From: Escherichia phage EcoPhCCP1
Reading direction: 5' to 3' (one strand)
Length of the DNA: 44,482 nucleotides
Sequence record: PQ384582.1
Each line of letters opens with the position of its first letter. Position 1 is the first letter of the stretch. Shown one piece after another: positions 11,488-38,345 of this stretch. The position numbers and the translations under genes were made by a program. Under the pieces are notes generated by a model. That model was not told the DNA's origin, made no database searches, and saw nothing but the letters and a program-made list of their open reading frames with translations.

Positions 11488-11981
11488 ATTGGCATGAAGT
11501 TTTTGACTACGACCCCGCTACAGGTAAATTATTTTGGAAAATAAGTCCGTCAAAATCTGTAAAAATAGGGCAAGAAGCTGGCAGTACGAGGGCGGACAAC
11601 GACGGGAGTGAATTTAAAATACTACGTTTTAACGGGACTACTAAACTTATCCACCACGTAGTTTGGGAGATGTTTAACGGGCCGATAGCGCCTGGGGAAG
11701 TAATTCGTCATAAAAATAAAGATAGAACTGATAACAGAATAGAAAATCTTATAAAAATGCGTCGGGGCAGTATCGCACACGGCACCAGCATACGGACGGA
11801 CAATACTTCAGGGGTTAAAGGTGTTGGGTTTCATAAACGCTATGGTAAGTGGGTCGCAAGAATTTATGTAGACGGCAGGCCGATTTATTTAGGGGCTTAC
11901 GATAAGTTAGAGAACGCGGCTAAGGCTCGCAGGCAAGCCGAGATTAAATACGGGTTTACAGTTAACGGAGCTGAGAAATGA
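11484..11981 (+). CDS. HNH homing endonuclease with AP2 DNA-binding domain
   Basis: HH...N...DNRIENL HNH core and AP2-like KGVGFHKRYGKWVARIYVDGRPIYLGAYDKLENAAKA. Confidence 0.75.
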   Translation: MNWHEVFDYDPATGKLFWKISPSKSVKIGQEAGSTRADNDGSEFKILRFNGTTKLIHHVVWEMFNGPIAPGEVIRHKNKDRTDNRIENLIKMRRGSIAHGTSIRTDNTSGVKGVGFHKRYGKWVARIYVDGRPIYLGAYDKLENAAKARRQAEIKYGFTVNGAEK

Positions 11982-13228
11982 TTCTAAAAGAACGCGGCGG
12001 CAATAATGACGTACACGCCTTACTGTCGCCGTCAGGTGCTAAAAAGTGGCTAAGCTGCGCCGCGTCACTGGCCTGTGAAAAAGATATTCCTAACACGTCA
12101 GGTAAAGCCGCGGTATTAGGCACAGCTATGCATACAATAGCCGAGGTCCATTTAAATCAGTACATCAAAGGCACTGCGCTGCCGTTAGAACGTGAAGTTG
12201 GCGCTTACGTGCTGGATGGGGGTAAAGGTCAGATTAAGGCGCTAATCAGCCCGATTAAAGGCGCGGTACTGATTACGGCGGATATGATTGAGCAGGTGCG
12301 TAAGTACACCGACTACTGCAAACCGATTATCGATGTAGCGACTTACGCCAAGCTCGAGATGCGCGTCAATCTTACTGAGGTATTGCATCCTGGCTACGAA
12401 GGTGTCGAGACGTTCGGAACTGCTGACCTTGTTGCCGTACAGGAACTGGCAAACACTGACGAGCACATGTTAATTATCGGCGACCTGAAAACTGGGCGGC
12501 ATCGTATCGAAGCGAAAGAAAACAAGCAGCTTATGCTCTATGCTCTCGGTGTTTATCGCCGACTCAAGAGACGTTATAACATCGCAGTTGTTCGTCTGGT
12601 CATCTTCCAGCCGTACGCTGGCGGGGCGTCGGAGTGGGACATCTCGGTTGAAGGTCTGGAACTGTTCGCTAAGTTCGCACAGAAACGTGCACTGTTGGCT
12701 CTTGATGCCTATTTCCGCGGTAAGAAGAACCTGAAAGCGTCGGACTTCAAGCCGTCTGTCGATGGTTGTCAGTGGTGCCGGTTCTCTGAACAGTGTGCTG
12801 CGCGTACAAAAACCGTTAACGCGGTACTGGCGGAAGAGCTGGAGGACGACTTTGCACTGGAACTGACGCCGGAGCAACTCGTAACTGAGTATGAGAAGCT
12901 GCCGTTGTTGCGCCAGCACATAGACAAGGTTGAGAAAGCGATGGCCGCCGCATTGCATTCAGGTAAGAAAGTGCCAGGGTACAAGCTGGTTGAAGGCCGT
13001 CCTGGTAATCGTGCGTGGAAAGACTCCGATGCGATTGAAGTGTCACACGGCGACATTCTCAAAAAAGAGGTATTGATGTCGCCCACGGAGGCAGCAAAAG
13101 TTCTTTCGGCGGACGAGATGGCAGCGCTTGAGCCGTTTATCACGCGTAAGCCGGGCGCACCATGTGTCGCATCGGCAGACGACAAGCGTCCTGAGTGGAA
13201 TCAGGTAACAGAGGAGGATTTAGAATGA
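11978..13228 (+). CDS. PD-(D/E)XK nuclease, Cas4/DUF2800-like
   Basis: N-terminal HALLSPSGAKKWLSCAAS, DLKTG motif and C-terminal Cys cluster (C.WCRF...C). Confidence 0.65.
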   Translation: MILKERGGNNDVHALLSPSGAKKWLSCAASLACEKDIPNTSGKAAVLGTAMHTIAEVHLNQYIKGTALPLEREVGAYVLDGGKGQIKALISPIKGAVLITADMIEQVRKYTDYCKPIIDVATYAKLEMRVNLTEVLHPGYEGVETFGTADLVAVQELANTDEHMLIIGDLKTGRHRIEAKENKQLMLYALGVYRRLKRRYNIAVVRLVIFQPYAGGASEWDISVEGLELFAKFAQKRALLALDAYFRGKKNLKASDFKPSVDGCQWCRFSEQCAARTKTVNAVLAEELEDDFALELTPEQLVTEYEKLPLLRQHIDKVEKAMAAALHSGKKVPGYKLVEGRPGNRAWKDSDAIEVSHGDILKKEVLMSPTEAAKVLSADEMAALEPFITRKPGAPCVASADDKRPEWNQVTEEDLE

Positions 13229-14234: not shown

Positions 14235-16436
14235 ATGAGTTACCTGTTCTTAGACTTTGAAACATTCTCCGAAGCTGATTTAAAGAAAGTCGGTTCCTAC
14301 GCTTACGCTGAACATCCAACTACCGAAGTGCTAATCTGTACCTATGCTTTTGACGACGAGCCTGTGCAGGTGTGGGATTGCACCGACGGCAGCGACATGC
14401 CTGGCGATTTGCACCGCGCGTTACGCCGTCTGGTTAAACCGAACAGCCGCATCAAGATGGTGTGGCACAACGGCTCAATGTTCGACCGCCTCATCATGAA
14501 ACACTGCTGGGGTTTTGATATTCCGGTAAGCAACACCATTGATACGATGATTTGGGCGTTCCGCCACGCGCTGCCGGGTTCACTTGATGCATTGTGCGAA
14601 GTGCTGGGTGTATCCGCAGATAATGCGAAAGATAAACGCGGCAAGGCGCTGATTCAGCGTTTCTCTAAACCCACTCCGAAGAACTACAAAATCCGCCGCT
14701 ACACCGCCGAGACGCACCCTGGCGAGTGGGCGCTGTTCATCAAGTACGCCGTGAGTGACATAACTGCGATGCGTGAAGTTTTCCATAAGCTACCGCGGTG
14801 GGGTAACTCTGAGTTCGAAGACCGTGTACTGGAACTGGACCAGTTAATCAATGACCGCGGGTTTAAGGTTGACGTTGCACTGGCGGAAGCCGCAATTGAA
14901 GCCGTGGAAAAACACAAAGCGCAGTTACAGGAAGAAGCCCAGCGCAAATACGGCGGCTCTCTTACTGGTAAAGACTTCCTGCCAATTCTACGCGAACTGG
15001 CTCCTGCGCACCGTATTCATAACGCACAGAAGTCTACGCTTAACGACCTGCTGGCGGACGATGATTTACCTGACGACGCCCGCGCGATTATAGAAATGCG
15101 CCTCGGGGCCGCATCCACCGCATCAACGAAATATAACCCGCTGTTGTTAGGCCGCTCTTCGGACGACCGCCGTCGAGGGTGTTTACAGTATGGCGGGGCA
15201 AAACGTACTCTGCGATGGGCGGGTAAAGGCTTCCAGCCGCAGAACCTGGCGCGCGGGTACTATCACGATGATGAACTGGATAAAGGCATTTCAGCGTTAC
15301 TTAAGGGCCGCGCGCACCGCCGTTTTGATGTCGCTAAATTAACGGCATCGACGGTGCGTAGCTGCATCATACCGGAAGCAGGACATAAGTTTGTTGTTGC
15401 CGATTATTCTAACGTCGAAGGTCGCGGTTTAGCGTGGCTGGCCGGTGAAGAAACCGCGCTCGATACGTTCCGCGCTGGCCTTGATATTTACTGCGTAACC
15501 GCGGGTAAGATGTTCGGCATGGACCCAGATGATATTAAGAAAAACTTCAAGGAAATCAGACAGATAGGCAAGGCTTGCGAACTGGGCCTCGGTTATGAGG
15601 GGGGTGTCGGAGCGTTCGTTACGTTCGCCAAAAACTTAGGCCTAGACCTTATTGAGATGGCAAAAACAATGGACGGGACTTTCCCCGACCACATCTGGGC
15701 TGCTACCGCACGTGGGTATGAGTGGGCGCGTATTCAGGAAGCCAAGCGACCGCCACATCCCGGTGAAAAGGATGACCGACCATCGTATATTCTTGATAAG
15801 AAAGTGTGGCGCACATGTGACGCTATCAAGCGTATGTGGCGTGAGTCTCACCCTGAAACAGTAGCGTTCTGGCGAGACCTTAAAGATGGAATTTTAGCCG
15901 CTGTTCGCAATCCTGGTCGTGAATTTTGGGCAGGAGCACACTTGCGCAAGAATGGTGAAAGGGCTATCCGCATATGGCGTACTGTTGAATTTGATTCGTC
16001 CGGTAGGAAGGTTCCTGGTTGGTGGTTGTGTATGGAGTTGCCGTCGGGTCGTATCCTCTCGTATCCGGGGATCGGCGTTAGCGTGACAAAGGAAACAGAC
16101 GAAGACGGACGGGTAAACACGAATGTGCGAATCAAGTACCAAGGCGAAAACCAGTTAACCCGCCAATGGACTACCCTGTACACACACGGTGGCAAAGCCT
16201 GCGAAAACATTGTCCAGGCGCTGTGCCGTGATTTACTCGCGTATGCGATGATTAATGTTGAGGGTGGCGGGTATCCAATCGTGCTTTCGGTACACGATGA
16301 ACTGGTATGTGAAACTCCAGACACCCCCGAGTATACGGTGGCTGAACTGGAAAAATTAATGTGTTCGCTGCCTGAGTGGGCCGAGGGGTTCCCTCTTGTA
16401 GCGGAAGGTCAGGAGTTAAAACGTTATGCTAAGTAA
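14235..16436 (+). CDS. DNA polymerase, family A, with 3'-5' exonuclease domain
   Basis: Exo motif LDFETFS; Pol A motif A VADYSNVEGR, motif B RQIGKACELGLGYEGG, motif C VHDE. Confidence 0.9.
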   Translation: MSYLFLDFETFSEADLKKVGSYAYAEHPTTEVLICTYAFDDEPVQVWDCTDGSDMPGDLHRALRRLVKPNSRIKMVWHNGSMFDRLIMKHCWGFDIPVSNTIDTMIWAFRHALPGSLDALCEVLGVSADNAKDKRGKALIQRFSKPTPKNYKIRRYTAETHPGEWALFIKYAVSDITAMREVFHKLPRWGNSEFEDRVLELDQLINDRGFKVDVALAEAAIEAVEKHKAQLQEEAQRKYGGSLTGKDFLPILRELAPAHRIHNAQKSTLNDLLADDDLPDDARAIIEMRLGAASTASTKYNPLLLGRSSDDRRRGCLQYGGAKRTLRWAGKGFQPQNLARGYYHDDELDKGISALLKGRAHRRFDVAKLTASTVRSCIIPEAGHKFVVADYSNVEGRGLAWLAGEETALDTFRAGLDIYCVTAGKMFGMDPDDIKKNFKEIRQIGKACELGLGYEGGVGAFVTFAKNLGLDLIEMAKTMDGTFPDHIWAATARGYEWARIQEAKRPPHPGEKDDRPSYILDKKVWRTCDAIKRMWRESHPETVAFWRDLKDGILAAVRNPGREFWAGAHLRKNGERAIRIWRTVEFDSSGRKVPGWWLCMELPSGRILSYPGIGVSVTKETDEDGRVNTNVRIKYQGENQLTRQWTTLYTHGGKACENIVQALCRDLLAYAMINVEGGGYPIVLSVHDELVCETPDTPEYTVAELEKLMCSLPEWAEGFPLVAEGQELKRYAK

Positions 16437-29300: not shown

Positions 29301-29329
29301 TTGCACACCCCAATATAATAGGGTACTAT
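29301..29329 (+). promoter_or_regulatory. phage promoter family member TTGCAC-N17-TACTAT (plus strand) driving the moron island
   Basis: 32 bp (29301-29332) identical to 39188-39219. Confidence 0.6.
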
Positions 29330-29360: not shown

Positions 29361-29552
29361 ATGTCCAGTTTACCAATTTCCTTAATTCTGTTCGCACTGC
29401 TTGCTTATTTCGCACCTTTCCTGGTTGCGTACTTCCGTAATCATAAAGCGAAGTTAGCGATATTCATGGCTAACTTATTTCTTGGGTGGGTTCTGTTGCC
29501 GTGGGTATTCATTTTAATCTGGGCTTGTAACTCGAACGTGAAAGAGAAGTGA
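29361..29552 (+). CDS. small two-TM membrane protein, superinfection-immunity-like
   Basis: YFAPFLVAYFRNH...NLFLGWVLLPWVFILIWA resembles the Imm_superinfect pattern; GGAGGGG SD. Confidence 0.5.
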   Translation: MSSLPISLILFALLAYFAPFLVAYFRNHKAKLAIFMANLFLGWVLLPWVFILIWACNSNVKEK

Positions 29553-29590: not shown

Positions 29591-30721
29591 ATGGCCCGGA
29601 AGAAAATAACCGACGAACAGTTACAGGAAGAATTGAACGCCGGGGTTAAAACTATCGATATAGCCCGTAAATATGGCATCTCAGACCGCGTTATTCGTAT
29701 CCGTAAAGCGAAGCTGGCGAAGAAAGGCGTGGGTCATGGGCGTGACGTTAGCCACCTTGTGCCGGACGGCTACAAGATTAAAGGAACATCGTCACTTGTG
29801 GACGAGTTCGGCAACACTAAGTTGCAATGGGTTAAGACCGATACCGATGCCGAACGTCAGGTCGAATTGATGAAAGCCGTAATCGAGGGCATGAAGTCAG
29901 AGATTACTCCAGTTGCGCCTGTTAAAGCCGCCCGCACCAAACGCGACGACAAGCTGCTCAATCTTTACACGGTATCTGATTTCCATCTCGGTATGCTGGC
30001 CTGGGCTGACGAGAGCGGCGACGACTGGGATATGAAGATTGCGGAAGACCTGTTTTCTCGCTGGTTCGATGCGGCGTTTCAGAAAGCACCAGATGCGGGA
30101 ACCGGGGTTATTAACCTGCTGGGTGACTTTGCTCACTTCGATAGCCTGGACGCCGTTACACCTGAGTCGCGCCATGTGTTGGACGCCGATACTCGCTATC
30201 AGAAACTGGTTCGCTACATGATTCGTATGGTGCGCCGTGTTGTTGATATGGCGCTTGTTAAACATAAAACCGTTCGCTTGCTTATCGTGCAAGGGAACCA
30301 CGACGAAAGCGGAATGATTTGGTTGGCTGAGATGTTCAGTACGCTGTACGACAACGAGCCGCGTGTGTTCGTCGATACGTCGCCGGATGTGTACAAGATG
30401 GTGCGACACGGCAAAACGACGCTGTTCTTCACACATGGTCATAAATGCCGGTTTGAGGTGGTCGAACCAATTATGATATCTAAGTTCAGAAAAGCATTCG
30501 GGGAAAGCGAGTACAGCTACGCTCACGTAGGCCACCTGCATCACCAGAAAATTGTAGAAAGCCGTAACATGATTGTTGAGCAACACCGCACCTTAGCGGC
30601 TAAAGATGCCTACGCCTCTCGTGGCGGATGGATGTCAGGACGCAGTGCAAATGTAATTACTTATAGCGCCGAATACGGCGAGGTCGCACGTTTAACTATT
30701 TCACCGGAGATGCTGGGATGA
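29591..30721 (+). CDS. calcineurin-like metallophosphoesterase with N-terminal HTH
   Basis: Motifs SDFHLG, LLGDFAHFD, VQGNHDE, THGH, VGHLHH; ATG 29591 with GGAAG SD (track ORF starts at GTG 29549). Confidence 0.6.
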   Translation: MARKKITDEQLQEELNAGVKTIDIARKYGISDRVIRIRKAKLAKKGVGHGRDVSHLVPDGYKIKGTSSLVDEFGNTKLQWVKTDTDAERQVELMKAVIEGMKSEITPVAPVKAARTKRDDKLLNLYTVSDFHLGMLAWADESGDDWDMKIAEDLFSRWFDAAFQKAPDAGTGVINLLGDFAHFDSLDAVTPESRHVLDADTRYQKLVRYMIRMVRRVVDMALVKHKTVRLLIVQGNHDESGMIWLAEMFSTLYDNEPRVFVDTSPDVYKMVRHGKTTLFFTHGHKCRFEVVEPIMISKFRKAFGESEYSYAHVGHLHHQKIVESRNMIVEQHRTLAAKDAYASRGGWMSGRSANVITYSAEYGEVARLTISPEMLG

Positions 30722-31203
30722 AAGATATTGTAATTTTCGATTTAGATGGAACATTGGCAGATGGTATGCATCGTTTACACCTGCTGCCGAAAGATAACTA
30801 CAACGAAACATGGGCGTGGAAACCCTTTAACATGGCGTGCAAAGATGATGAACCAATTAGAGATAACATCGAACTGTGTAACGCCCTTAATCGTCGCTAC
30901 GCCGTTATTATTTTAACTGGTCGCAGTGATGATGCAGAAAAAGAAACCAGAATGTGGTTGCAGCGCCACCGCGTCGAATTTTATCAGTTAATCATGCGCA
31001 GCAAACACGACAACAGAAAAGACATCGTAATTAAAGAAGAGGTGTTACGCGCTATCGGGCTGGAAAGAATATTGTGCGCATTCGACGACTCTCCGGCGGT
31101 AATAAAGCATTTCCGCGGACTCGGTATAACCACTCACGCGGTTACTGAATACGACTGTAACGGGAATTCTACACACTTAAAATCACACGGGAGCGATAAA
31201 TAA
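30718..31203 (+). CDS. HAD-superfamily phosphatase / 5'-nucleotidase-like
   Basis: HAD motif I FDLDGTLAD at the N-terminus. Confidence 0.6.
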   Translation: MKDIVIFDLDGTLADGMHRLHLLPKDNYNETWAWKPFNMACKDDEPIRDNIELCNALNRRYAVIILTGRSDDAEKETRMWLQRHRVEFYQLIMRSKHDNRKDIVIKEEVLRAIGLERILCAFDDSPAVIKHFRGLGITTHAVTEYDCNGNSTHLKSHGSDK

Positions 31204-31772
31204 TGGCTAAGGTAATTATTCTTAATGGCCCGGCGGGTTGTGGGAAAGACACACTTGCTATGGTGCTGGTAGAAATGGGCTTTGCGAAGGGTGCTACCAG
31301 TTTCAAAAATCCAATGTTCAATATTGCTCTGGCAGCGTTAGGTCCGGATGCGTACCACGAGTTTCTCGACGGCTACGACGACCGGGCGCGGAAAGAAAAG
31401 CCAGAGGGTTTCCTTAATGGTTTGTCTCGTCGTCAGTTCATGATTGCCATTTCTGAGCAATTCATTAAACCGGTTCTCGGCGGCGATTATTTCGGTAAGT
31501 ATCTTGCTGAAAACTTGCCCGACGGCGATGACGTTTTTGTAGTGTCAGACGGTGGATTCGCCAGTGAAGTGTCCCCTATCGTCGCCGCAGGGCATGACGT
31601 AAAAATCGTTCGCTTGCGCAGAGACGGCTATACGTTTGACGGGGATAGTCGTGGTTACCTGTACGGTATTGATGGTGCGGTATGTCATGACGTTGTGGCC
31701 ATCCCAGGCGAGATTACATTAACAGCAGCTGCGATTGCTAATAGAATCCTGGGGATTTATCCAAATGCGTGA
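31203..31772 (+). CDS. P-loop kinase, dNMP-kinase-like
   Basis: Walker A NGPAGCGKDT (GKDT variant as in T4 gp1-type dNMP kinases). Confidence 0.55.
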   Translation: MAKVIILNGPAGCGKDTLAMVLVEMGFAKGATSFKNPMFNIALAALGPDAYHEFLDGYDDRARKEKPEGFLNGLSRRQFMIAISEQFIKPVLGGDYFGKYLAENLPDGDDVFVVSDGGFASEVSPIVAAGHDVKIVRLRRDGYTFDGDSRGYLYGIDGAVCHDVVAIPGEITLTAAAIANRILGIYPNA

Positions 31773-31941
31773 ATGTACAATGGGGACAATATTTGTAATC
31801 CGCGTATATGACGAAGAATGGGATGAGTGGGTTGATATTTATGCTGTTGGTAGTAAGGAAGAGGCCGCAAAAGAGATGACAGAACGGAGTGACAGAGGTC
31901 AGTTAACTAACTTCTACGAAATGCCATTCAAAAGTGAGTGA
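31765..31941 (+). CDS. hypothetical protein
   Basis: ATG 31765 in frame with track ORF 31735..31941; ends at the terminator. Confidence 0.35.
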   Translation: MRECTMGTIFVIRVYDEEWDEWVDIYAVGSKEEAAKEMTERSDRGQLTNFYEMPFKSE

Positions 31942-31946
31942 GTGAG

Positions 31947-31976
31947 AAAAAGGCCCCGAAAGGGGCCTTAGTTTTA
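31947..31976. terminator. bidirectional rho-independent terminator
   Basis: AAAAAGGCCCC-GAAA-GGGGCCTT flanked by A-run and T-run. Confidence 0.75.
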
Positions 31977-33146
31977 TGCGTAGGTGATACGCTGGATAAC
32001 AATAGACGACTGGTATTGATTGCCTGTGGACTGCCCTTCTATGCTCTGGGTAATTGATTCAGGTCCGCCAATCTCTGGCGTAACCGCCGTGAGTTCTGCG
32101 CGTTTCAGACTGAAAGACATAGCCCCGTTTACCCCCGCCAGAATAGAGTTAATCTCTACCTGCTGTTCGTTGATAAACTTCTGAATCATCGCCATGTCAT
32201 ACAGCTTACCGGAGATGGAGAAGGTGTTAGCCGCGCGGCTACGTTCCACAAACGCTACGTTAGTGTTGCCGAGTTCGAACTGTGCGGACGCGCTGTTATC
32301 GTTGGTGATGGTCAGGCTGTCGCAGCGCAACGGCGTAGAGCCATCGAACACAGAAACGTCAACCGAGGAGAACGGCTCATCAGTGAACGTAACAGAGGAG
32401 AAGTCGGAACCAGACGGCGCCGCGGTAAGAATCTCCTGGCTGCGCCCGATGAACGGGAAGCTGCCCGTCACCATCGCGTTAACGGTCTGTTCAACAGTGA
32501 AACCAGAAACTTCCACGCCTTTGGTAAGCGTGTACGCGTCTGTCCCGCCGCACTGGCCCTTGTACCAGGTGAGAATAGAGAACGTCTTACACTGGCTGCC
32601 GGTTTCCAGTTTGTCGCCGGTCTTAGCCGCGGTAGTAGCAGTCTCGGTGATCAGAGTGTGTTGAATACCCGCACCAGTTACCACCAGTGCCTCTACCGCA
32701 GTAACAATAAACGGTTTAGCGTTATCGCCGGTTAAGTCAGTAAACGCAATCAGGTCGCCTACTTCCACACCGTCAGTAATAAAGCTACCTCCGGCACGGG
32801 TGAACGTCTTGTCCACCGGTGCGACGGTAATCGACAGCCCCGACAGAGAAACACCGGATTGCCACGTAGAGCCTAAAGCACCCGCCAGCCAGTCGTCCTG
32901 GCTTTTAGAGCTAAGCTCGACCGCGTATTCACCGCTAACCTGTTTGTTACCGGTTCGGATGGATGTAGTTTCACGGCTGCCGTCCAGTTCGTTGGAGGTC
33001 AGCGTGTCGCGGGTGATAGCAGGAACGCCACCTGTGTTACGCAACGGTGACCAGACCGGGTTAGTCGGTGTTACGCCCGGGGTAGTTTCCGCCACATAGA
33101 ATTGCGCGGTAGTCGCGCCCTTAAAAGGAGTTGTAGCCATATTCAC
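31974..33146 (-). CDS. major tail protein (by position)
   Basis: 390-aa Thr/Ser-rich protein downstream of connector/terminator genes; no motif recognised. Confidence 0.5.
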   Translation of the reverse strand: MNMATTPFKGATTAQFYVAETTPGVTPTNPVWSPLRNTGGVPAITRDTLTSNELDGSRETTSIRTGNKQVSGEYAVELSSKSQDDWLAGALGSTWQSGVSLSGLSITVAPVDKTFTRAGGSFITDGVEVGDLIAFTDLTGDNAKPFIVTAVEALVVTGAGIQHTLITETATTAAKTGDKLETGSQCKTFSILTWYKGQCGGTDAYTLTKGVEVSGFTVEQTVNAMVTGSFPFIGRSQEILTAAPSGSDFSSVTFTDEPFSSVDVSVFDGSTPLRCDSLTITNDNSASAQFELGNTNVAFVERSRAANTFSISGKLYDMAMIQKFINEQQVEINSILAGVNGAMSFSLKRAELTAVTPEIGGPESITQSIEGQSTGNQYQSSIVIQRITYA

Positions 33147-36478: not shown

Positions 36479-36537
36479 AAATTACCTCTTAGTAAATGAA
36501 AAGAGGGACCGAAGTCCCTCTCGATTATATATTAACC

Positions 36538-37587
36538 TTAAGCACCGACACCAGTTACCAGAAATGCAATCGGTACATGCTTACGATCAACAACGCGGTT
36601 CCAGTTGGAGGCGTTCGCCAGGTCCTGCCAGGAGGCAGAACGTGCGACAGTCTCGGTGCCGTTGCCGGTGATTACCGCGCTGGTGAAGCTGTAACCAAAC
36701 GGGTGCAGCAACCATGTCTTACGGGTCCACAGGGTTTCGACGCCGCCGCCGTTACCACGAGACGCTTCGCGTTCGTATTCCAGCGGGTTAGACGGATTGC
36801 CTTCACCATAACCGATAGCTCCGTTGCCGAAGATGATGGAGATGAACTTGCGGCTCGGGCCAGTTCCGACCACGGTCATGCTGTCGTCAACAATCACACG
36901 GTAGCCCTGGTAGGTGGCGAACAAGGTGTCGTTGTCGGCGTCTTTGATGAAGTCGATAAGTTGCTGCTTACGCGCCTGCGCATAAACGAAGCTGTGCATC
37001 GCGATAGCGCCCAGCACTTCACCGCCGTTGCCCATCAGCGCATCGCCCATAGTCTGGGTAGCGTCGATGAATGCGCCCGCGTCGAAGCCCAGAGAAGCAG
37101 ACACGTCGATAACCATATCGTTCTGCGTATGGTATTCATCGGTAGCGGCTACGTTGTCGTTGTACAGACCGAGCGCGGTAGCAATCAGACGGCGTTGCGC
37201 CTGGCGCTGCCAGAAGTTATCCAGACGGGCCGCTACGGAGCGCAGCGGCTGCTGACTGGTCAGTTCGACGGTCAAATCCGCCTGGCCGAAACCTTCGTTC
37301 AGGTAAGCTACACGAACATCCATCTCACCGGTCTGCACGTTACGCGGGGTAGCGATGTCCTGGTATACGTCGTTCGAGTAGTTCGGCTCGATAGAGGTGT
37401 CAATCGCTTTCCAGTACGGCAGAACCGCTTTGTTGGACGGGCCGTTAGCGATAGCAGCGGCGTACGGAGTCTGGGTCAGAATACCGGACTGGAAGAACGC
37501 GGTTTTTTCTACCGGGTCCTCGGTCATGTAAGACAGAATTACCGATTCTTTACCAGTTACGATATCGCCAATAGTAGTAATTGCCAT
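36538..37587 (-). CDS. major capsid protein
   Basis: 349-aa ORF immediately downstream of the scaffold-like gene. Confidence 0.7.
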   Translation of the reverse strand: MAITTIGDIVTGKESVILSYMTEDPVEKTAFFQSGILTQTPYAAAIANGPSNKAVLPYWKAIDTSIEPNYSNDVYQDIATPRNVQTGEMDVRVAYLNEGFGQADLTVELTSQQPLRSVAARLDNFWQRQAQRRLIATALGLYNDNVAATDEYHTQNDMVIDVSASLGFDAGAFIDATQTMGDALMGNGGEVLGAIAMHSFVYAQARKQQLIDFIKDADNDTLFATYQGYRVIVDDSMTVVGTGPSRKFISIIFGNGAIGYGEGNPSNPLEYEREASRGNGGGVETLWTRKTWLLHPFGYSFTSAVITGNGTETVARSASWQDLANASNWNRVVDRKHVPIAFLVTGVGA

Positions 37588-38345
37588 TATTTTTTCCTCA
37601 GGGCTTTAAGTTGCCGTTCAAATTCGGCAGGGTTCGATTCGTACAGAGCGATACGCTCCGCTTCACTCATGTCTTTAAACGCTGGTGCGGCCCCGCCGCC
37701 TTTGCCACCGGAAGCCCCGCCGCCGGAAGCTGCATTTGCTTTAATCAAATGCGAAAACGCTTTGTGTTCACGCAGATATTTGCGGAACTGTTCCGGGTCA
37801 GTCGTGATTACGTTGCCGTCTGCACCAACAAACTTAGTAACCACATCATCGCCTTCGAACTCAGTCTTAACGAACGGTGCAAGAATGTCCACTGCTTCAG
37901 GGGTGATGAAGTCACCTGCGAAAGAGCCTAACACCGCTTTACGTTCGCTGCCGAGGATGCGCTCTGCCATTCTGGAGATGCAACCATCTTTCTCGGCCAG
38001 CACCGGGTCATACTGGCTACGAATCGTTTTTTCGAACTCGTCCATCTTACCGGCGGCTTTTAGTGCCTCCTGGTGCGCGCGCTGCCGTTCTTCTTCGGCC
38101 TCTTTTGCTTTACGAGCGGCTTCTTTCTTCTCCGCCAGCAATGCTTCCTGATTAGCCTTAAGACCGGCGACTTCTTTCTCAATCAGCGCCTGAACTTCTT
38201 CGGCTGTGAACATTTTTGGCGCGTCACCGCCACCAGCTTTATCTTCTGCCCCAGCTTCTTCCTGGAACGGATAACGTAAAAAACGATTCATAGTCAGTAT
38301 GTCCCCTGGACGTTGGAACCCGGGCCACCCGGATTTACATGTCAA
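37587..38345 (-). CDS. capsid scaffolding protein
   Basis: Helical, charged, Ala/Glu/Lys-rich; immediately upstream of the capsid gene; true start probably an internal Met. Confidence 0.6.
   Translation of the reverse strand: MTCKSGWPGFQRPGDILTMNRFLRYPFQEEAGAEDKAGGGDAPKMFTAEEVQALIEKEVAGLKANQEALLAEKKEAARKAKEAEEERQRAHQEALKAAGKMDEFEKTIRSQYDPVLAEKDGCISRMAERILGSERKAVLGSFAGDFITPEAVDILAPFVKTEFEGDDVVTKFVGADGNVITTDPEQFRKYLREHKAFSHLIKANAASGGGASGGKGGGAAPAFKDMSEAERIALYESNPAEFERQLKALRKK

Follow-up and report, generated by a model that had tools for sequence, protein, structure and literature searches.

A helix-turn-helix metallophosphoesterase of Escherichia phage EcoPhCCP1 lies beside the Mre11/T4 gp47 nuclease branch and may feed nucleotide salvage

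In true Mre11 enzymes, a capping domain and a Rad50-type partner shape DNA specificity. The metallophosphoesterase fold also occurs in a non-catalytic role, in Bxb1 gp47. In phage T4, gp46 and gp47 are recorded as required for recombination and host-DNA degradation, gp1 carries out the conversion of deoxynucleoside monophosphates (dNMPs) to diphosphates (dNDPs), and host-DNA salvage through endonucleases II/IV, gp46/47 and gp1 follows a logic of DNA to dNMP to dNDP. Among stand-alone phage metallophosphoesterases, the best functional precedent is Gp48 of the cluster A mycobacteriophage A10ZJ24, which shows phosphodiesterase and DNase activity in vitro, degrades the host genome in vivo and supports replication (PMC12287305). 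In this study, we analysed the gene at positions 29591 to 30721 of Escherichia phage EcoPhCCP1 (PQ384582.1; the whole 44,482-nt stretch is called the window), which codes for a calcineurin-like metallophosphoesterase with an N-terminal helix-turn-helix (HTH). The protein is nearest to the nuclease branch formed by Mre11, T4 gp47 and the archaeal PolD small subunit DP1, of which it is a non-canonical member, and it is probably a DNA nuclease.

The window holds the complete genome of a Kagunavirus-like small siphophage; megablast with the region returned 266 phage records at approximately 88%–91% nucleotide identity (K1G, K1ind1-3, ST20, RP180 and several named 'Kagunavirus'). The open reading frame (ORF) runs on the + strand from the ATG at 29591 to the TGA at 30719-30721. 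A ribosome-binding site (RBS), GAGGAAG, lies 8 nt ahead of this ATG, and almost all close homologues have 376 amino acids and the N-terminus MA(R/Q)KKITDEQ; the ATG was therefore taken as the start, the in-frame GTG at 29549 being an unlikely one. Another ORF of 229 amino acids lies within the gene on the − strand (29897-30586), and since the + strand frame holds all the conservation, it is most likely spurious, a non-coding shadow of the conserved sense frame. The gene and the parts of its product are as follows.

29591..30721, + strand: HTH-metallophosphoesterase gene, supported by ORF and RBS; 376 amino acids; PHROG 704, 'DNA repair exonuclease'

29612..29722, + strand: N-terminal three-helix HTH, residues 8-44, of sigma-70 region 4 / LuxR-GerE type

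29723..29770, + strand: linker, residues 45-60, probably flexible (pLDDT 66-67)

29771..29902, + strand: family-specific module of a beta-hairpin (residues 61-85) and a helix (87-104), from the secondary structure of the AlphaFold2 model

29945..30718, + strand: catalytic core, residues 119-376, with motifs I-V and without a capping domain

29975-29992: motif I, SDFHLG, residues 129-134

30122-30142: motif II, GDFAHFD, residues 178-184

30293-30307: motif III, GNHDE, residues 235-239

30434-30442: motif IV, HGH, residues 282-284

30530-30544: motif V, GHLHH, residues 314-318

The family alignment comprised 56 relatives with 31%–50% identity to the window protein, drawn from a library of 1.84 billion representative proteins that was searched exhaustively; a word-indexed protein search gave near-identical proteins only, and the diverse relatives came from the search of 50% representatives. 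Eight residues are invariant in all 56 (D130, H132, G178, D179, N236, H237, H282 and H317), five more are conserved in at least 90% (H182, D184, D238, G283 and H315), and H284 is nearly invariant. The fact that the catalytic residues are invariant or nearly so across such diverged relatives strongly suggests that the HTH-metallophosphoesterase is an active enzyme under selection. Close homologues, on phage contigs of approximately 44 kb and numbering in the hundreds in databases, are 94%–97% identical as proteins, and the Kagunavirus relatives are approximately 88%–91% identical at the nucleotide level.

An AlphaFold2 model built on the 56-relative alignment (mean pLDDT 92.2) has the beta-sandwich phosphoesterase fold of the calcineurin-like superfamily. 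Its N-terminal helices lie at residues 8-16, 21-28 and 32-44, the HTH region is occupied in 98% of the aligned relatives, and individual relatives match Sigma70_r4_2 (1.5e-9), GerE (2.4e-8) and HTH_8 (2.6e-7). The first 60 residues carry a net charge of +6. The linker bears the family-wide motif G-(aromatic)-S-P-E-H-D-M-T-H-x-V-P-D-G (here GVGHGRDVSHLVPDG; G46 in 48, P58 in 45 and G60 in 38 of the 56 relatives), and the hairpin module that follows is near-invariant at W80 (55/56), K82 (51/56) and G74 (51/56). A reading made from the letters and their translations (the sequence-only reading) had described an HTH-fused calcineurin-like metallophosphoesterase with five motifs, and motifs, fold and HTH all held up, the motifs lying in order between residues 129 and 318; it had also given the whole of the N-terminal 60 residues to the HTH, which is real but spans residues 8-44 only, residues 45-60 being linker. 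A mosaic homologue was also seen (locus L061, 6001-7155), in which the first 60 residues, HTH plus linker, are near-identical to those of the window protein while the whole protein is 61% identical, a pattern that suggests recombination where the HTH meets the catalytic part.

The protein matches PHROG 704 at E = 1.3e-164, with residues 4-375 on profile positions 2-389 of 390. It falls short of the curated Pfam cut-offs for Metallophos_2 (PF12850; 24.6 vs 27 bits) and Metallophos (PF00149; 20.1 vs 21.5 bits), and 9-10 of the 56 relatives match Pfam metallophosphoesterase models at E ≤ 0.01. By these scores the family is a divergent branch that the Pfam models barely reach, and its membership in the superfamily thus rests on the motifs and the fold rather than on a Pfam score.

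To place the protein within the superfamily, sequence comparison with the PDB was uninformative: a direct search with the window protein found nothing, and the family profile gave marginal matches (GerE, E = 0.11; SbcD/Mre11, 0.2-0.5; 'Nuclease MPE', 0.6). Structure was therefore relied on. The top Foldseek match was Mre11, at E-values that do not separate the branches; in the structural comparison LpxH (13.9), MJ0936 (13.6) and further Mre11 structures (13.0-13.5) came after the leading matches, with Rv0805 at 12.1 and the Ser/Thr phosphatase PP5 at about 9. When the family profile was compared by hhalign with single sequences, under identical conditions for all comparators, T4 gp47 was matched with 79% probability (E = 1.6e-5) in an alignment of 187 columns that begins at motif I and extends beyond motif V. 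The corresponding values were 13.6% for Bxb1 gp47 (motifs III-V only), 3.1% for Escherichia coli SbcD (motif III only) and 1.5% for E. coli CpdA (motif V only). The segment after motif V, TLAAKDAYASRGGW, is common to the catalytic core and T4 gp47, the family pattern TLAAxDAYAxRGGW pairing with TLTAGDENDPRGFW of gp47. Mre11 has GDLFH at motif II, and the family likewise has GDFxH.

The structural ranking and the hhalign results together put the protein beside the Mre11/gp47/DP1 branch. Its nuclease domain is nearer to Mre11/SbcD/T4 gp47 than to the other branches, and no specific affinity to the class III cyclic-nucleotide phosphodiesterases (CpdA/Icc/Rv0805) was found. The sequence-only reading had seen a resemblance to Mre11/SbcD and to CpdA alike; the match to gp47 upholds the first half of that statement, and the value for CpdA does not uphold the second. 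CpdA and Mycobacterium tuberculosis Rv0805 lack the HTH and rank below the nuclease branch, and the insert between motifs II and III, VTPxSxHxLDxD, is family-specific rather than a CpdA feature. These data bear on the possibility that the protein is not a nuclease at all but a small-molecule phosphodiesterase or pyrophosphatase that blunts defence or reshapes nucleotide pools, acting on the cyclic mono- or oligonucleotide signals of CBASS, Pycsar, type III CRISPR or Thoeris, on deoxynucleoside triphosphates (dNTPs) or dNDPs, on Ap4A or on alarmones. LpxH, MJ0936 and Rv0805 are structurally not far behind, which speaks for it; the universal HTH, the alignment with gp47, the persistence across whole phage families, the lack of a PADLOC match and the lack of any link in the literature make it decidedly unlikely. 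The sequence-only reading had named a nuclease and a cyclic-nucleotide phosphodiesterase as candidates; the former is a plausible activity, and no evidence of action on nucleotide second messengers emerged.

A further question is whether the protein is mainly a regulator, with a phosphoesterase fold of secondary importance (an HTH transcription factor, or an accessory of recombination directionality like Bxb1 gp47), or else a protein phosphatase. HTHs of the sigma-70 region 4 / LuxR type usually recognise specific DNA sequences, and the NCBI pipeline names close homologues 'winged helix-turn-helix domain-containing protein'. Nevertheless, the metal and phosphate ligands are all invariant over deep divergence, the phage is virulent with no integrase in its genome map, and the relation to Bxb1 gp47 is weak. 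The signature of the PPP phosphatases (GDxHG - GDxVDRG - GNHE) is absent from the window protein. Given also the structural ranking, we regard such a role as extremely improbable.

Within the nuclease branch, the family is a version without Rad50 and without the capping domain, and with a universal HTH. T4 gp47, SbcD and Mre11 have a capping domain, whereas the window protein ends 59 residues past motif V with two short strand pairs only, and residues 222-339 of gp47 have no counterpart in it. Conversely, the HTH and beta-hairpin module is absent from those three proteins, and T4 gp47 belongs to PHROG 100 rather than 704. Among the ORFs of the complete genome there is no Rad50/SbcC-like ATPase, no ligase and no integrase; in particular, no Rad50/SbcC/gp46 ATPase is present among the ORFs of at least 450 amino acids, which were identified as primase-helicase, PolA, helicase, tail, tailspike and portal genes, with the tape measure assigned by position and sequence, and a 551-amino-acid ORF antisense to the capsid gene. 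No gene of the Rad50/SbcC/gp46 type was found beside the homologues in TLS, phiEa1H, ECBP5, JLBYU37, K81 and F356 either.

DP1, a 3′-5′ proofreading exonuclease, shares 13% sequence identity with the window protein, and the phage lacks its DP2 partner. A DP1-like proofreading subunit was considered and rejected: the phage's PolA appears to hold an exonuclease region of its own (a weak PHROG 403 match), and the TLS locus has a primase and a helicase and no DNA polymerase gene near the homologue. T1-like phages, which carry the gene, are not known to encode a DNA polymerase. The MPE nuclease of Pseudomonas putida (Lhr-MPE repair cluster, PDB 6nvo) is structurally far more distant than Mre11 or DP1, has no HTH and stands in another gene context. 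Gp48 and Bxb1 gp47 resemble the window protein as stand-alone phage metallophosphoesterases with five motifs and differ from it in belonging to PHROG 221, in length (255 amino acids) and in lacking the HTH. Membership of one family with Gp48 was rejected, since hhalign gave only the 13.6% noted above over motifs III-V and PHROG 221 is not 704; no Mycobacterium phage was among the records matched by tblastn (see below).

The gene stands in a + strand cassette among − strand tail genes, with the tape measure and chaperone genes on one side and the major tail protein gene on the other. The other features of the cassette are as follows.

29361..29552, + strand: T4 Imm-like superinfection immunity membrane protein, 63 amino acids, first gene of the cassette (PF14373, E = 7.5e-13; PHROG 1039, E = 1.5e-22)

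30718..31203, + strand: Pnkp-type HAD polynucleotide 3′-phosphatase, 161 amino acids (PF25109, DxDxT)

31203..31772, + strand: P-loop kinase of the T4 gp1 dNMP-kinase type, 189 amino acids

31773-31941, + strand: small acidic ORF at the end of the cassette, containing MGTIFVIRVYDEEWDEWVDIYAVGSKEEA; no PHROG match

31947..31977, both directions: bidirectional intrinsic terminator, AAAAAGGCCCCGAAAGGGGCCTTAGTTTTAT, from a terminator scan (stem 31950-31969, 8 bp, 6 GC pairs)

The stop codon of the metallophosphoesterase gene overlaps the start of the HAD gene (ATGA), whose stop overlaps the start of the kinase gene (TAATG), indicating that the three are translationally coupled. The terminator, a strong one, closes both the cassette and the converging major-tail gene. 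A sigma-70 promoter scan upstream of 29361 found none; by eye, a perfect TATAAT is present at 29314-29319, with a poor −35.

The HAD protein scores 68.9 bits against PF25109 HAD_PNKP (cut-off 27.6), has the nucleophile motif DLDGT at residues 8-12, and has Pnkp1 (2e-6) and the phosphatase domain of T4 Pnkp as its best PDB sequence matches. The kinase has a P-loop fold closest to T4 gp1 and an intact Walker A motif; by itself it occurs in 1,434 phage records. A split Pnkp-like system of end healing and sealing, completed by the ligase in podophages, was our first lead; it lost that place once the model of the kinase proved to resemble T4 dNMP kinase instead of the polynucleotide kinases. The modest additions made by this analysis are the placement of the family next to T4 gp47, its architecture without Rad50 or capping domain and with a universal HTH, and the finding that the recurrent partners of the metallophosphoesterase are a dNMP kinase and a 3′-phosphatase, not a polynucleotide kinase. 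Both partners are inconsistently labelled in public records: 'polynucleotide kinase' is a widespread name for the phosphatase, which lacks a kinase domain, and some records give the kinase as 'replication factor C large subunit' or 'GTP-binding protein era'.

The nature of these partners also bears on RNA end healing, in which the metallophosphoesterase would act as a 2′,3′-cyclic phosphodiesterase and, with the HAD phosphatase, mend tRNAs cut by host anticodon nucleases; the models for such a role are the phosphatase module of bacterial Pnkp and lambda phosphatase. Pnkp1, the best sequence match of the HAD neighbour, belongs to an RNA-repair system, and Clostridium thermocellum Pnkp uses a metallophosphoesterase module in this way (PMC3675462). 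The structural ranking, the type of the kinase and the invariant active site are against it, and we consider it very improbable.

The best explanation overall, which we put forward tentatively and at somewhat less than an even chance, is an HTH-tethered DNA nuclease that feeds nucleotide salvage. The data show the phosphoesterase fold, catalytic residues that do not vary, the HTH, an affinity to gp47, what the neighbouring genes are, their coupling and the recurrent synteny; which substrate and metal the enzyme uses, from which direction it attacks, what it targets and what it does for the phage, we infer as follows. The protein would belong to the Mre11 / SbcD / T4 gp47 / PolD-DP1 branch as a two-metal DNA nuclease that works on its own, probably using Mn2+, and its basic N-terminal HTH would hold it on DNA in place of a Rad50/SbcC partner. 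During lytic growth it would attack DNA ends or single-stranded regions and release 5′-dNMPs, most likely from the host chromosome and possibly also from phage recombination intermediates, as in the case of T4 gp46/47. The Pnkp-type 3′-phosphatase would clear blocking 3′-phosphate ends, the T4 gp1-like kinase would turn the released dNMPs into dNDPs, and the cassette as a whole would convert DNA into precursors for phage replication. The full salvage scenario is held a little more loosely still. If right, it offers a simple, testable prediction of how small virulent siphophages gain nucleotides or process DNA ends.

In this scheme the counterparts of the coupled trio in T4 are gp47 for the nuclease, gp1 for the dNMP kinase and the phosphatase domain of Pnkp for the HAD protein, and the logic of host-DNA salvage is the same. 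In contrast to T4, the window genes form one compact, translationally coupled cassette, of which the downstream two are optional in close relatives; the nuclease has no Rad50 partner, and the phosphatase is a protein by itself, free of a fused polynucleotide kinase.

Members of three phage families share the trio of nuclease, phosphatase and kinase. The podophages phiEa1H and ECBP5 have it after exonuclease/endonuclease VII and before DNA ligase, and in Drexlerviridae without SH3 it is the commonest arrangement after the metallophosphoesterase (PMC13164509). In Campylobacter phage F356, an HTH-less homologue follows the DNA ligase gene near a resolvase, and in the T1-like phage TLS the homologue ends the replication/recombination module.

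Several observations weigh against the salvage explanation. Most genomes with the metallophosphoesterase (those with Jerseyvirus-like loci, Dhillonvirus, TLS and many with Kagunavirus loci) have neither the HAD nor the kinase gene, so that salvage coupling cannot be the core role of the enzyme. A PD-(D/E)XK exonuclease (11978-13228) is already encoded in the genome, as is an annealing protein like gp2.5. With its net charge of −6 the catalytic core is acidic, and the protein lacks both the capping domain and the Rad50-type partner of the Mre11 enzymes. Recombination or repair would account just as well for the synteny with ligase and resolvase genes. Literature on escape mutants, transposon essentiality, BASEL phages and STAND-sensor triggers held no functional data on the family.

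The same nuclease chemistry may instead be directed at the phage's own DNA, resecting or opening ends, hairpins and stalled intermediates for recombination-dependent replication or repair together with endonuclease VII, exonuclease, 3′-phosphatase and ligase, with no degradation of host DNA for nucleotides. The position of the gene in phiEa1H and ECBP5, with endonuclease VII on one side and DNA ligase on the other, the placement of the F356 and TLS homologues, the similarity to T4 gp47, the Pnkp-type 3′-phosphatase, which is a classic end-healing enzyme, and the PHROG label 'DNA repair exonuclease' are all in keeping with it. However, the adjacent kinase is of the dNMP type and not a polynucleotide 5′-kinase, which leaves the end-healing kit incomplete, and the phage has no ligase. 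The Kagunavirus gene stands apart from the replication module, in the tail gene block, and T7-like phages cluster all their class II DNA-metabolism genes anyway, so that synteny is weak evidence. We therefore consider work confined to the phage's own DNA rather unlikely.

It is also conceivable, and quite unlikely in our estimate, that the HTH-metallophosphoesterase, persistent as it is, arms the phage against host defences instead of doing the housekeeping work of a nuclease. By analogy with Gp48, it might shred the host chromosome early and so block inducible defence genes; alternatively, it might destroy nucleotide immune signals. In either version, the kinase and the 3′-phosphatase would assist in restoring dNTP pools in the face of nucleotide-depletion defences. 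That the cassette is itself part of a defence system was rejected, no PADLOC match having been obtained for any of the four cassette proteins. If the proposal were true, the family would represent a general immune-evasion factor on a Rad50-independent Mre11 scaffold, carried by thousands of therapy-used T1-like, Dhillonvirus, Kagunavirus and Jerseyvirus phages.

Whichever of these roles applies, the family is widespread. Of 50,697 phage records searched by tblastn, 2,039 contained the gene, which reached at least 80% completeness in 1,958. The records include Guernseyvirinae, Drexlerviridae, Dhillonvirus and the Autographiviridae phiEa1H and ECBP5, and further Vibrio, Rhodobacter, Ruegeria and Flavobacterium phages, and T4-like Campylobacter phages, whose copies lack the HTH; homologues from Campylobacter and Ruegeria phages are also assigned to PHROG 704. 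In the representative library, 4,642 clusters at 50% identity were matched at E ≤ 0.001. In a 2026 pangenome study of Drexlerviridae, the gene is 'persistent', being present in 508 of 522 genomes (PMC13164509).

In the window's relatives, the Imm, HAD, kinase and homing-endonuclease neighbours vary around the metallophosphoesterase, as judged from 74 related viral contigs, all of which were fetched through the metallophosphoesterase and cannot show how constant that gene itself is; the single-protein scan for related loci is biased to close relatives. The Imm-like gene is found in only some related loci. Among Kagunavirus loci no more than a subset have the HAD and kinase pair, and the Jerseyvirus-like and Dhillonvirus-like ones lack it. 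The metallophosphoesterase is the stable anchor of a variable locus. The sequence-only reading had taken it for part of a moron and had called a DNA-binding phosphoesterase there unusual; neither view is sustained, given the varying neighbours around a gene that persists in Drexlerviridae, and the numbers of records and clusters given above.

The family is ordinary, already catalogued and widely though inconsistently annotated, and its finding would not surprise a specialist. GenBank already has 'DNA repair exonuclease' or 'metallophosphoesterase' for it; elsewhere it goes under 'winged helix-turn-helix domain-containing protein', 'hypothetical protein', 'DNA adenine methyltransferase', 'oxidoreductase', 'proof-reading exonuclease' or 'DNA polymerase II small subunit'. 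The present analysis corrects inconsistent labels such as the last three, and 'polynucleotide kinase' for the HAD gene. The matter has some practical weight, the gene being persistent in Drexlerviridae, Dhillonvirus and Guernseyvirinae, which are commonly isolated coliphages, Klebsiella phages and Salmonella phages, many of them used in therapy.

Between the metallophosphoesterase gene and that for the major tail protein, the stretch from 30722 to 31973 forms a slot whose cargo varies (loci L005, L010, L014, L020, L022, L028, L029 and L061). It holds the HAD and kinase pair, or HNH homing-endonuclease-like ORFs of 157-166 amino acids (MTWNDVYEYENG, MDWSEVFSYKNG), or ORFs of 66-76 amino acids (MKDMYECTDV..., MTSKYNRTMTN...). 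The small acidic ORF at 31773-31941 recurs in relatives even without the HAD and kinase genes, for example in L022 and L028.

The content of the rest of the genome was read from PHROG scans of the other large ORFs. Structural genes comprise those for terminase, portal, head, tail and tailspike, and the other genes recognised are those for a replicative primase-helicase, HNH endonuclease, PD-(D/E)XK exonuclease, a gp2.5-like single-stranded DNA-binding/annealing protein, PolA, methyltransferase and helicase. Residues 445-538 of the PolA-type DNA polymerase (14235-16436, + strand, 733 amino acids) match the 'endonuclease' phrog_93 at E = 7.5e-15 and may represent the insertion of a homing-endonuclease-like domain. 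The annotation of phiEa1H splits the polymerase gene into two parts, after which comes an HNH DNase-like gene. The 551-amino-acid ORF at 36496-38151 (+ strand), antisense to the major head gene, is most likely a non-coding shadow of the conserved sense frame.

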